From positions 992,001 through 1,056,000 of the forward strand of contig CBDCWC010000002.1 in NCBI GenBank assembly GCA_965223295.1: a stretch of DNA of 64,000 nt. The letters run 5' to 3'. Source of the stretch: Nitrospirales bacterium (GTDB lineage Bacteria > Nitrospirota > Nitrospiria > Nitrospirales > UBA8639). Shown here in pieces: positions 39,001 to 42,000 of the stretch. The stretch's first letter is position 1. Every line of letters begins with the position of its first letter. Made by a program: the position numbers.

Positions 39001-42000
39001 GCCCGAAAGCCTACACCTTGGACCCGTCCAGTCACGACAGCATGGATACGAACGATCCTGTCCATATTTTCTTCCTCGATCTCTAAAAAAAGCAAACGCT
39101 GATGGATTTTTCAGAAACTCGTTCCTGGGGATGTATTTTGAAAGGACTGCATCAGACGCTCAGCAACCTGCCCCCCTTCTCGAATACAATCAGGAATGCC
39201 AATTCCGCAGAGCCCCGCTCCGATGATCTGGAGACGTGGGCTTGACGCCATAAGCTCTTTGAGTTTGGCAACCCTATCTTGATGACCGATGACATATTGC
39301 GGCATCCCCCGGACCCAGCGATGCACTTCCCTATAGTTGGGGGGACTGACGATCCCGATGATGGCTTGCAGTTCTTGACGGATGACTTCCACCAGGCAAT
39401 CATCATCTTGGTCTAGAATATGCTCACGACCTCTTCCCCCCACATAGCACCGAATCAGTGTTTCCCCTTTTGAGCTACGGTCTGGCCATTTTAGCGATGT
39501 CCATGTGCCTGCAAAAATGGGCCGTTGCTCTTTTCGAGGGACAACAAATCCGAACCCTCGAATCTGCCCTATTACCGCTTCCGTGGGATAAGCAAGAGAT
39601 ACCGTTGCTGTTGAAGTATAAGGAATTTGACTTAATACCGCTGCGGCTTCCGGCTGAAAATTCTGAAGAAGCTGTGCCGTTTGATAAGCCGGAGTTGTAA
39701 GAACCACTGCATCTGCTAAAAGCTTGGAACCATTTTCTAAATGGAGAGAATATTTTCTATCATTTTCAACAGTCGCTTGAAACGGGAGACATCCGGCACC
39801 AGACATTAATTGTACACCACCTTCCGTGAGCCGCTGAATTAATGTCTTAATAAGGTCTCCTAAACCATTTCGAAGTGTCATAAATAACGAGGACGGTGTT
39901 GACCCCGAAGGCTTGGGGACTTGCTGAGCTTTAGCTTGAACAGCGCGCATACCTTTAATGACGCTTCCATATTCTTGTTCTAATTCTCGAAACCGTGGAA
40001 ACGTCGCTTCAAGACTGAGTTCCTCTGCATCACCCGCGTATATTCCTGCGACCAACGGCTCAATAAGATAATCAAAGGCTTCCGTTCCAAACCGCCGCCG
40101 AAAAAAACTCGCTAAGGATTCCTCTCCCCTTTTCGAAGATGCTTTAGGCCAAAACCGTTCTGCCCCCATACGAAGGAGCCCGCGCCAGGACAACAAGCCT
40201 CCAGAGACAAGAGTATCCACTCGTTGCGGGCGAAAGCTTAGTAAGCCTTGTGGCAACTCCCGCAACGCGCCACGGCATAATGAAAACGTCCGATTATTTT
40301 CTGTAATGGTCGGAATGAGTTGACTCTCAAGTCCTAAGGTCCGGCACAAGGCCAGAGCCCAGGGCTTGGATGTTAAAAATGAATCTGGCCCCCCTTCGAT
40401 GAGAAGGTTGGCAGGATGATTGGTCAGAATTTTCCCGCCCCATCGGGTATCCCGCTCAACAACCGTGCATTGTATTGGCAATTCATGTTTTTTTGCTTCC
40501 TCCATGACAAAAAATGCCGTAGAGAGTCCTGAAATCCCACCACCCACAACGACGACATGATAGGAAGATTGTGGCACGTTTTCTTACGTGAGCAAGAGAC
40601 CGGAACTATTGTGAGAAGGAGAGGAGATGATACATCACGAAGGTTCTGACCTGAAAAGCGACCGGAATGTTCACTGAAATTACCAATTAGACAGCCTGAA
40701 CATCTCGGGAGAAGCGATGAACGCAGTCAATCGCAAAGTCTACATTGTGCAATGGCGTGGTTGGGAGAATTCCATGACCCAAATTAAATATATGTCCGGG
40801 CCGCCCGCCAGCTTGTTGCATAATAGCTCGCACACGCCGTTCAATTTCCTTTTCTGATGCAAACAAGACCATAGGATCGAGATTTCCCTGAATTCCCATA
40901 TCATGTCCGACCAAGTTCCATCCTTCATCCAAGCGGACGCGCCAATCAACACCCATGACATCACCTCCGGCTTTGCGCATCAACGGCAGCAATCCAGTTG
41001 TTCCCGTTCCAAAATAAATAAGTGGAATCCCTTCCACTCGCAAGGCCGAAAAAATTGATTGGACATGAGGCAAGACATATTCTTCATAATCGCCAGGGCT
41101 TAAACACCCAACCCAGCTATCAAAGAGTTGGATAGCTTGAGCCCCAGCCCGGCTTTGAACTCGCAAATATTCAATGACGACAGCAGAGAGTTTGGAAAGA
41201 AGCTGATGCCAGACGGTTGGCTGTGAAAACATCAGTTGCTTTGTTCTGGCATAATCTCGAGAGCTGCCTCCCTCTATCGCATAACTCGCTAAGGTAAATG
41301 GCGCCCCCGCAAATCCGATTAATGGAACTCGACTCTCTAAGGCCCCAAGCGCTTGACGGATGGCTTCCCCGGCATAGCCGAATGCTTCACCATCAACGGC
41401 TCGAAGCTCCACAATACCCATCTCTCCCCGAATGGGATTATCAATGACGGGTCCTTTGCCTTCGATAAATTCCAGATGAAGCCCCATGGCTTCTAACGGC
41501 AGCAAAATATCTGCAAAGATAATGGCCGCATCTAACTGAAAACGTTGAATAGGCTGGAGAGTGACTTCCGCAGCCAGTGACGGCGTTTTACAAACTTCTA
41601 AAATAGAATGCCGGCGGCGAATGGCCTGGTATTCTGCCATGTACCGCCCCGCCTGCCGCATAAACCACACCGGCGTCCGGTCCACTGCTTGACGAAGACA
41701 CGCCTTTAAAAATCGATCATTCATGTGGGCATTCTACGAAGCACAAAATACGGAGTCAATGAACGAAGGAAGCCCTAGCCTCACATGCTTGCAATGAGTG
41801 TTCTGGTAATAGTTAGGATAAAGACCGCACGATTTGTGGGCCTAACGTTTCATAAATACGTTGAGAGTCTTTATGTACCGTATCCCATTCTGCTTCAGCC
41901 ATCACCCAAGCATCATCTGGTTCCAGTTCAATACGATAATGCTGTTCATCTAGAGAGAACCATTCAAAATAGGGATGAGGGGGAAGCAAAGGGTGCGGAT

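Follow-up and report, generated by a model that had tools for sequence, protein, structure and literature searches.

A family of marine nitrite oxidisers lacking ferrochelatase in an otherwise retained coproporphyrin-dependent haem pathway, and a half-size CbiX-type protein as candidate for the iron-insertion step

To our knowledge, all described porphyrin routes to haem employ a HemH-type ferrochelatase, and organisms devoid of such an enzyme either take the sirohaem route or import haem. In the coproporphyrin-dependent (CPD) pathway, which runs through UroD, CgoX, CpfC and ChdC, CpfC is named as the only enzyme of the iron-insertion step in excerpts from three reviews (PMC13564367, PMC10991733, PMC10740692). 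The tested members of the CfbA, CbiX-S and SirB chelatases act, in the excerpted sources, on sirohydrochlorin or uroporphyrin rather than on coproporphyrin III, and neither the CbiX-S of A. fulgidus nor wild-type CfbA inserts Ni into the latter (excerpt of PMC11568245). Here we describe the hemE-hemY locus of a Nitrospirales bacterium (genome G000, assembly GCA_965223295.1) within a window of 64,000 nucleotides (contig CBDCWC010000002.1, positions 992,001 to 1,056,000). The family to which it belongs shares UroD, CgoX and ChdC with its catalytic Tyr with the CPD pathway but has no CpfC/PpfC, whereas the sister families carry the full operon.

In the window, hemE and hemY/cgoX adjoin each other, with the hemH gene that lies between them in sister families missing (Table 1), as the first-pass annotation had claimed. 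A six-frame search of the 109-bp spacer with a HemH profile detected no hemH remnant (best E 0.53). The order hemE-hemH-hemY, initially seen at three of four sister loci, was recovered at all six sister-order loci fetched. The hemY/cgoX product, encoded by a single-copy gene in G000, matches oxidases of known structure (E 9e-91 against the PDB), and the Nitrospirota enzymes group with CgoX in an excerpt of PMC10740692. Both retained genes are kept under purifying selection, with a median dN/dS of 0.094 for hemE and 0.169 for hemY/cgoX. The protein encoded upstream of hemE (149-190 aa) has a 50-54% identical copy at the same place in 6/6 sister loci; it lacks a Pfam or NCBIfam match, and an atlas search gave no match at or above 0.9. 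Because hemH-bearing relatives have it too, it is no specific replacement of HemH.

Table 1. Features at and around the hemE-hemY locus (positions in the window)
Feature	Position	Strand	Evidence
Acylphosphatase with no connection to haem, downstream of hemY	38781..39095	minus	NCBIfam acylphosphatase models, E 9e-28
hemY/cgoX, flavoprotein coproporphyrinogen (protoporphyrinogen) oxidase, 488 aa	39111..40577	minus	TIGR00562 329.5 bits, cut-off 97.85
Spacer, 109 bp, site of hemH/cpfC (~950 bp) in sister families	40578..40686	no strand	sequence, HemH profile
hemE/uroD, uroporphyrinogen decarboxylase, 345 aa	40687..41724	minus	TIGR01464 421.8 bits, cut-off 302.95
Protein conserved upstream of hemE, without known family	41813..42385	minus	sister-locus comparison

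The loss of hemH is real and family-wide. PF00762 was found in none of the 101 family genomes, including the 85 that are at least 90% complete, and in none of 13 genera, which extends the 0/31 counted originally and gives the same picture; outside the family it was detected in 171 of 182 genomes of the phylum, with 41 of 42 in sister family f2. Nothing in G000 exceeds the PF00762 cut-off, and the best match, at C2:1535385, has an E value of 0.02 and a stop inside it, which rules it out as a divergent or split HemH. Among 30,935 peptides from a six-frame translation of G000, a profile built from 33 HemH proteins of the phylum likewise found nothing better than E 0.095, in keeping with the earlier search with relatives' HemH. 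Among the best-scoring 30 hemE loci of the family, hemY is at 29 (within ~36-184 nt at 28 and ~850 nt away at one), with no HemH match among them. Chance or assembly gaps cannot account for the absence of hemH from all 101 genomes because 96 of them have hemE, which flanks that very site; together with the six-frame searches, this rules out an assembly or annotation artefact.

The remainder of the pathway is in place. In G000, hemA, hemB, hemC and cobA-hemD are located on contig C3, and some 70 ORFs contain CxxCH motifs. ChdC with the catalytic Tyr is encoded in 97 of the 101 family genomes. The G000 protein g00474 (C2:445596-446300) scores under the NCBIfam ChdC cut-offs and had been doubted on that account; its best PDB matches are coprohaem decarboxylases (E 3e-28), and in the alignment the YPF motif, with the catalytic Tyr, and the proximal His match, while Leu occupies the position of the distal Arg of chlorite dismutase (Cld). 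By the features that separate ChdC from Cld (catalytic Tyr, Cld distal Arg; PMC7611857), the sequence identifies g00474 as a ChdC, and the doubt is resolved.

The sirohaem (Ahb) bypass, reported absent on the strength of 13 genomes, is missing throughout: the AhbA/B domain PF17805 was found in 0/101 family genomes, with a positive control in three archaea. We regard it as quite improbable that haem is made from sirohaem by an unrecognised Ahb variant involving the radical SAM protein g03004, or that coproporphyrin acquires its iron with no chelatase dedicated to the step, for instance on ChdC, in these slow growers. The sirohaem branch is present, with a sirohaem reductase in 100 of the 101 genomes, and g03004 is NirJ2/AhbD-like (330 bits for NirJ2 and 309 for AhbD, cut-offs 500); however, AhbA/B are lacking, g03004 reaches 169 of 650 bits on AhbC and is the only strong match of its kind in G000, and hemE and cgoX would have no function if haem came from sirohaem, yet both are under purifying selection. 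Haem auxotrophy of the family, with import of haem, had been left as a caveat and is now very improbable. Several TonB-dependent receptors of G000 weakly resemble haem receptors, but the highest score on TIGR01785 is 156 bits, short of the cut-off of 317, and a B12-salvage cluster houses one of the top two. Moreover, cells that kept HemE and CgoX without an outlet would accumulate phototoxic porphyrin. Uptake is further rendered unlikely by a relative, Nitrospira marina, which multiplied 20-fold (9.9 to 200 x10^5 cells/ml) in a defined medium that contained salts, nitrite, Fe-EDTA, trace metals and B12 but no haem (PMC8115632, supplement 1), provided that N. marina lacks hemH, as the consecutive numbers of its hemE and hemY genes suggest. 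Among chelatases of other types, CbiK (0/5 genomes searched) and CobN (none in G000; 8/101 family genomes) are ruled out as a general replacement of HemH. The absence of hemH and AhbA/B, the retention of the rest of the pathway, the rarity of CobN and the growth of N. marina thus argue that coproporphyrin III is metallated by an enzyme other than CpfC/PpfC. Accordingly, this family of marine nitrite oxidisers, with at least 100 species-level genomes, uses neither the sirohaem route nor import, which implies that an unrecognised iron-insertion enzyme exists; the pathway hole is real, and we did not find it described in the literature searched.

The candidate put forward in the first-pass annotation is g01424 (protein P0001, C2:1447493-1448002), a single-domain protein of 169 aa that scores over the PF01903 cut-off and is the only class II chelatase to do so in G000. 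Two His residues had been noted as retained; in the 71 aligned homologues, His13 is present in 68 and His125 in 69, the pair aligns with that of SirB/CfbA, and Asp63 and Pro64 are found in 67 and 66, respectively. The predicted structure (model pLDDT 96.5) has the fold of CfbA, CbiX-S and two-domain SirB/CbiX, with Z 15.3 and rmsd 1.7 over 107 residues against SirB and Z 14.8 and rmsd 2.6 over 118 residues against CfbA; like CfbA and CbiX-S, g01424 is a single domain. Its best matches are sirohydrochlorin chelatases (structure Z 14-15; sequence E 1.6e-16), and the atlas places it in clusters automatically named as such. Unlike CfbA, CbiX-S and SirB, it has a helical insertion of ~45 residues after His-Gly, WPR and DPY motifs and no conserved Ser, and SirB, CfbA and CbiX align with the model over only 103-120 residues. 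The residue after His-Gly is Gly in 22, Ala in 19 and Ser in 8 of the 71 homologues; Ser at this position helps CfbA to recognise acetate-rich substrates (excerpt of PMC11568245). Against the curated CfbA model, g01424 scores 33 bits (cut-off 120).

The insertion falls where CpfC/PpfC have the lid of their N-domain. The model aligns with CpfC N-domains including the lid over 133-144 residues (Z 10.8-12.7, rmsd 3.2-5.1), for example with residues 3-164 of LmCpfC over 141 residues (Z 12.7, rmsd 4.0), where the equivalence of the lid is loose, and with yeast and human ferrochelatase over 149-160 residues (Z ~10, rmsd 4.2-4.9). With the catalytic C-domain, g01424 shares a DPY motif before the first long helix and a His after strand 1, and profile-profile comparison with the HemH catalytic domain (probability 93.7%) pairs the (N/S)DPY of the g01424 family with the GDPY of HemH. 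His125 aligns with the catalytic Glu of HemH, so that the second site residue is His, not Glu, and the His-x-Glu of g01424 is not that of ferrochelatases. In comparison with the two-domain CpfC/PpfC of ~310 aa, g01424 is half the size and has no PF00762 match; one two-domain homologue, P0145, reaches 26 of the 27 bits set by PF00762. Only six substitutions in g01424 are diagnostic of the hemH-less family, and no notable change of rate is seen.

Homologues of g01424 are present in 90 of the 101 family genomes (79 of the 85 good ones), which bears out the 29 of 31 counted before, and also in 41 of 42 genomes of the hemH-bearing family f2, as the earlier caveat had anticipated; the gene is order-wide, which rules out its gain at the time of hemH loss. 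Two of five absences examined are contig breaks inside the gene's cluster. Three genomes, G045 (91% complete), G083 (95%) and G097 (93%), have hemE and ChdC without g01424 and its neighbour ybgA, with no gap demonstrated, and six further family genomes of 59-91% completeness (G005, G022, G039, G040, G079, G095) lack the gene. The cluster has a light-stress character, with ybgA, a MerR-B12 regulator and a photolyase, and adjoins nirA in many genomes; a nirA-type sirohaem enzyme lies 3-24 kb from g01424 in 19 genomes chosen among the matches listed. The tie to light stress is shared with the CbiX of Rhodobacter capsulatus, which in an excerpt of PMC7074977 is induced by photo-oxidative stress and proposed to limit porphyrin photosensitisers, and is read there as a sirohaem ferrochelatase with no link to ferrochelatase loss. 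Each of the six N. marina proteomes contains a 169-aa 'CbiX protein' (11-17 spectra), and because the N. marina strain expressing it is devoid of corrin-ring synthesis, a cobaltochelatase role is unlikely.

The other chelatase to be weighed is g00458 (C2:432275-432928), a stand-alone protein of the class III type related to Met8p and CysG-B (TIGR01470 over cut-off), present in 18/18 family genomes in addition to G000. Unlike CysG, it has no methyltransferase module, CobA being fused to HemD elsewhere. In 29 of 30 orthologues, Asp, Glu or Asn stands in place of the third Gly of the NAD-binding motif; in Met8p, the G22D change reportedly abolishes the dehydrogenase and spares the chelatase activity. 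Unlike SirC, g00458 keeps the catalytic Asp equivalent to CysG D104 in 30/30 orthologues, an Asp of the type that marks chelating members (excerpt of PMC7018833). Originally seen as a sirohaem enzyme only, g00458 can be upheld in that role by the retained Asp, which would free g01424 from sirohaem duty, but the same Asp makes g00458 itself a rival for coproporphyrin. That g00458 inserts iron into coproporphyrin III, with g01424 simply a SirB for sirohaem or a stress protein, appears unlikely. In its favour are, besides these residues, its median dN/dS, 0.124 for the family compared with 0.042 for f2 (where the set is small and mostly of one genus) and its greater abundance in the N. marina proteome (22-31 spectra) than that of the CbiX protein. 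However, the same motifs occur in the hemH-bearing f2, so the NAD-motif change, an order-wide trait, is not family-specific; CysG-B holds its substrate, a ring with eight carboxylates, through numerous contacts, and no porphyrin activity is named in the excerpted review literature; the Pro of the D-x-P capping loop (26/30) is lost in 4/4 copies from the bacterium's own genus; and none of the 8 loci listed has haem genes as neighbours.

We consider g01424 the best candidate for the coproporphyrin iron-insertion enzyme, a proposal about as likely as not. In its favour, g01424 is the sole class II chelatase over cut-off in G000 and unites a CbiX-like His/His pair with a ferrochelatase-like lid and DPY motif, and some of its homologues are linked to haem genes or domains. 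Of the initial claim, the need for another enzyme stands, given that hemH is lost, the pathway kept, Ahb absent and uptake unlikely; the assignment to g01424 is weakened by its equal frequency in f2, the proximity of its cluster to nirA and the three genomes of 91-95% completeness without it. These genomes, and the presence of both g01424 and g00458 beyond the hemH-less family, also favour an enzyme whose fold has so far had no connection with chelation, with the two proteins serving sirohaem or stress only. This we deem unlikely: G000 yielded no CbiK, CobN or HemH-like protein, and a new-fold enzyme would have to acquire a new activity although two chelatase folds are present and expressed.

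Under the g01424 proposal, haem b would be made by a coproporphyrin-dependent route with a non-orthologous iron-insertion step. HemE and CgoX, whose genes are in place, would decarboxylate and oxidise uroporphyrinogen III to coproporphyrin III, and ChdC (g00474) would convert coprohaem to haem b. Synteny indicates that the family ancestor deleted cpfC from a hemE-cpfC-cgoX operon, presumably because a second coproporphyrin-metallating enzyme was already present. By analogy with CfbA and CbiX-S, g01424 may form a symmetric homodimer in which His13/His125 of one subunit would hold Fe(II) and the partner subunit would deprotonate the ring, and the helical hairpin of residues 22-54 could close the site like the ferrochelatase lid. 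Being order-wide, g01424 appears older than the loss of hemH, and its first role was probably that of a stress-linked porphyrin or sirohydrochlorin chelatase; sirohaem could be supplied by the Met8p-like g00458. More tentatively, the g01424 family might represent homodimeric half-size coproporphyrin ferrochelatases that combine a CbiX-type His/His site with a ferrochelatase-type lid and DPY, resemble the single-domain ancestor whose duplication gave rise to the two-domain ferrochelatases, and act as sole haem supplier of the whole family. If g01424 is a coproporphyrin ferrochelatase, the penultimate step of haem synthesis would gain a new enzyme and the haem map a branch, and this would bear on the shift of class II chelatases from sirohydrochlorin to porphyrins. 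Calls of haem auxotrophy based on lack of hemH would then need a second look in Chloroflexota, Bathyarchaeia, Aminicenantes and others, which carry the g01424 family.

Beyond the family, homologues provide evidence both for and against the g01424 proposal. On the negative side, hemH is present in all four Nitrospirota genomes checked that carry distant homologues. A metagenome scan found hemA, hemB, hemC, hemE, hemY, hemH or chdC near the gene at 0/80 loci, and only 3 of the 81 genomes around G283 (the unpublished G308 and G309 included) have a g01424-type gene. Of 160 distant loci, only one has a haem-operon link, with the gene not in the hemH position, which counts against the proposal; ten include feoB, fur, dtxR/feoA or ferritin, which favours it. 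Three further links of homologues to haem are supportive. At locus L158, a decayed hemA-chdC-hemE operon holds an intact homologue, inserted so that chdC and hemE flank it. In its relatives, two loci from unpublished genomes being excluded, the order is chdC-hemE-hemH at 15 of 28 ChdC loci; the gene thus does not occupy the hemH slot and is no replacement there. The sister-genome neighbour of hemE noted at first is in G155, where the homologue is divergent from hemE, 135 bp apart, and hemH is also present. In another homologue, P0162, the g01424-type chelatase is fused to an IsdG/HmuQ-like haem oxygenase domain.

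A whole family of Nitrospirales, the one holding the source genome G000, has lost ferrochelatase (hemH/cpfC) from its haem pathway, with the flanking steps kept, the known alternatives absent and two chelatase folds present. Close homologues carry Nitrospirales labels in the databases, among them Candidatus Nitrospira allomarina at 76% identity, which puts the organism with the marine members of the order. In the window, which spans G000 C2:992001-1056000, hemE and hemY/cgoX are separated by a 109-bp spacer, within which a HemH profile made from 33 proteins of the phylum found no match; searched against 30,935 six-frame peptides of G000 (3 contigs, 3.78 Mb, completeness 100%), the same profile reached a best E value of only 0.095. 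PF00762, detected in 8 of 14 reference genomes as a positive control, has no match over the cut-off in G000 and none in the 101 family genomes (13 genera; 85 genomes at least 90% complete) versus 171 of 182 other genomes of the phylum sample, including 41 of 42 in the hemH-bearing sister family f2 and the single genome of family f3. The order hemE-hemH-hemY is found in all six sister-order loci, whereas among the best 30 of 96 family hemE loci hemY lies about 36-184 nt from hemE in 28 and about 850 nt in one, the last stops at a contig edge, and none holds a HemH match. The first-pass annotation, which had described hemE and hemY as adjoining without hemH and ferrochelatase as absent family-wide, is thus borne out. 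Because the family genomes are non-independent kin, this is one event and not 101, and a single deletion in the ancestor of the family is the simplest reading.

Positions of the genes discussed (window, contig or locus coordinates)
Feature	Position	Strand	Remark
hemY/cgoX	window 39111-40577	minus	over NCBIfam cut-off
hemE	window 40687-41724	minus	over NCBIfam cut-off
protein upstream of hemE	window 41813-42385	minus	no known family
g01424	G000 C2:1447493-1448002		169-aa half-size class II chelatase
g00458	G000 C2:432275-432928 (L037:12276-12929)		218-aa stand-alone CysG-B-like protein; TIGR01470 over cut-off
NirJ2/AhbD-like radical SAM protein	L105:1351-2736 (with upstream gene, G000 C3:1374890-1378364)		
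410-aa membrane-anchored protein	L232:1069-2301		weak ferrochelatase-fold match (46 bits)

A full-text literature search, whose scope lacked most subscription papers so that prior notice is possible, found neither ferrochelatase loss in Nitrospirales nor a CbiX-type coproporphyrin ferrochelatase. The accessible passages of PMC8529089, PMC13564367, PMC10740692, PMC10427985, PMC10579370 and PMC8115632 make no mention of such a loss, and the word 'chelatase' is absent from the supplements of PMC10579370. PF00762 is also unmatched in four small families of the phylum (f5 0/1, f6 0/3, f11 0/2, f12 0/1; genomes 92-98% complete). The protein encoded upstream of hemE is kept there order-wide; the copies in all six sister loci are 50-54% identical to it.

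The other pathway steps are retained, as claimed earlier: hemA, hemC, cobA-hemD and hemB form a cluster on contig C3 of G000, hemE is found in 96 and a ChdC-type protein in 97 of the 101 family genomes (98 with any PF06778 match), and median pairwise dN/dS, computed only on pairs with dS 0.1-1.5, is 0.094 for hemE, 0.169 for hemY and 0.032 for chdC. The doubt raised over the ChdC assignment of g00474 is resolved, since its best structural-database matches are solved coprohaem decarboxylases (E 3e-28) and, judged by the residues that separate ChdC from chlorite dismutases in the available text of PMC7611857, both the tyrosine of the YPF motif and the proximal His are in place, whereas the distal Arg typical of chlorite dismutases is lacking. 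Coproporphyrin III is very probably made and metallated in the cell. Of the sirohaem bypass, which had been called absent, AhbA/B occur in 0 of 101 family genomes, and the sole AhbD-like protein of G000 falls below all cut-offs; an odd sirohaem route, or iron insertion without a dedicated enzyme, appears quite improbable. CbiK was found in none of five genomes searched, and CobN-type chelatases in 8 of 101 family genomes, G000 not among them; that another, not yet recognised enzyme inserts the iron is rather unlikely. These CobN/Mg-chelatase-family genes are distributed patchily across the family and fall into two length classes (loci L406-L409, from G021, G046, G031 and G037).

Haem uptake had been left possible. 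Among the TonB receptors of G000 none scores as high as the haem-receptor cut-off, and a B12-salvage cluster contains one of the top two. According to the available parts of PMC8115632, Nitrospira marina Nb-295 multiplied 20-fold in a medium made up of salts, nitrite, Fe-EDTA, trace metals and B12, the proteomes by contrast coming from seawater-based medium. In the proteome rows the gene numbers of UroD (345 aa) and HemY follow directly on one another; also listed are a chlorite-dismutase-family protein of 235 aa, a precorrin-2 dehydrogenase/ferrochelatase of 218 aa and a CbiX protein of 169 aa. Four of these proteins are exactly as long as their G000 counterparts, and the table has the word 'chelatase' once. 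From these rows we infer that N. marina is a member of the family and has no hemH. Import is accordingly an unlikely source of haem, and that these cells live by uptake seems very improbable.

The main candidate, g01424, is the only PF01903 match over the cut-off in G000. Its predicted model (pLDDT 96.5) shows a single class II chelatase domain in which a helical hairpin (residues 22-54) follows the His-Gly motif. SirB, CfbA and CbiX score highest in the structural comparison, at Z 14-15 with 103-120 residues aligned; 133-144 residues align with CpfC N-domains (rmsd 3.2-5.1, highest Z 12.7) and 149-160 with yeast and human ferrochelatase (Z about 10), the longer alignment arising because the hairpin takes the place of their lid. 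In a profile comparison with HemH of the phylum, the match is to the catalytic domain of HemH at 93.7% probability and sets (N/S)DPY against GDPY, but His125 lands on the catalytic Glu of HemH. Thus g01424 has a predicted CbiX-type His/His site with ferrochelatase-like additions and stands outside the HemH family. According to the available text of PMC11568245, coproporphyrin III is not metallated with Ni by CbiX-S or wild-type CfbA, and changing Ser11 of CfbA yields activity on coproporphyrin I; most members of the g01424 family differ from CfbA in having Gly or Ala there. That g01424, already present, inserts iron as a homodimer and made cpfC dispensable is a proposal we hold to be evenly balanced.

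The claim that g01424 is widespread stood, with 90 of the 101 genomes of the family carrying it and 79 of the 85 good ones, but it is not family-specific, occurring in 41 of 42 genomes of the hemH-bearing f2 and in the one of f3; a single-query search found no homologue in other families of the phylum sample. Five of the 11 absences were checked: in G067 the contig breaks off within a gene whose 98% identical counterpart in G055 lies about 4.6 kb from the chelatase, in G072 the contig stops just past the cluster, and G045, G083 and G097 lack both g01424 and ybgA, with no explanation found. Within 1.5 kb of g01424, 45 of 56 loci have ybgA, and a MerR-B12 regulator and a glyoxalase occur in 25 each, with a photolyase-like gene, named from sequence, farther out; this is a light-stress cluster, as with cbiX of Rhodobacter capsulatus, which is induced by stress (PMC7074977, in part). 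Among the matches listed, a nirA-type gene lies 3-24 kb from g01424 in 19 genomes, and this speaks for a role in sirohaem synthesis; in G000 only the larger sulfite-reductase type is present.

Sirohaem may be served by the second candidate, g00458. It keeps an Asp aligned with CysG D104, which is conserved in chelating members and Ser in SirC (PMC7018833, in part). Among 30 orthologues the Asp is present in all and a loop Pro in 26, and in 29, from both families, the NAD motif has Asp, Glu or Asn in place of its third Gly. The matching change in Met8p reportedly abolishes dehydrogenase and spares chelatase activity, suggesting that g00458 is a dehydrogenase-dead chelatase throughout the order; sirohaem chelation may thus not need g01424. 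The same residues make g00458 a possible coproporphyrin chelatase, though its performing that iron insertion is unlikely, if credible.

With 437 representatives at E 0.001, the g01424 family is a small one; its members turn up here and there in Chloroflexota, Bathyarchaeia, Aminicenantes, Thorarchaeota and other groups, and its haem links are few. In P0162 the chelatase is fused to an IsdG/HmuQ-like domain, and the IsdG protein of S. aureus is known to bind CpfC (PMC10991733, in part). In a Chloroflexota MAG (L158:4723-6770) whose sole PF00762 match is weak (46 bits), an intact copy sits in a decayed hemA-chdC-hemE operon: a remnant of hemA comes first, and the copy is flanked by chdC, which is frameshifted, and hemE, which is truncated. 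In three Manganitrophaceae-type loci chdC is about 1.2-1.3 kb away, in genomes that hold hemH, and in G155 the homologue stands head-to-head with hemE. Of the distant loci inspected, 160 in all (the top 80 of 584 matches and the top 80 of 561), one has a haem operon, two an adjacent AhbD-like gene and ten iron-uptake or storage genes.

Distant homologues in L149, L154, L155, L169, L183 and L334 stand beside feoB with fur or dtxR/feoA, a context pointing to iron, not cobalt or nickel. Tandem two-domain forms also occur (P0145, P0200, P0202, P0236, P0259; P0145 scores 26 of 27 bits on PF00762), and in P0162, P0137 and P0209 the chelatase is joined to an IsdG-like, MFS-transporter or PQQ/CARDB partner. 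The protein in L232, from the same MAG as L158, is not a canonical HemH. The order-wide cluster at g01424 (L431, L040; G000 C2:1434000-1449000) further encodes formylglycine-enzyme-like proteins, a TIGR01777-like epimerase, thiol peroxidase and DUF4149 besides the photolyase-like gene, ybgA and two MerR-B12 regulators, and BLUF-like genes follow it in some genomes; several of these names come from sequence. The C-terminal extension of the NirJ2/AhbD-like protein matches two further places in the genome, the 698-aa gene upstream carries a Cys-pair (rubredoxin-like) segment, and the N. marina proteome is rich in a radical SAM/SPASM protein of 460 aa.
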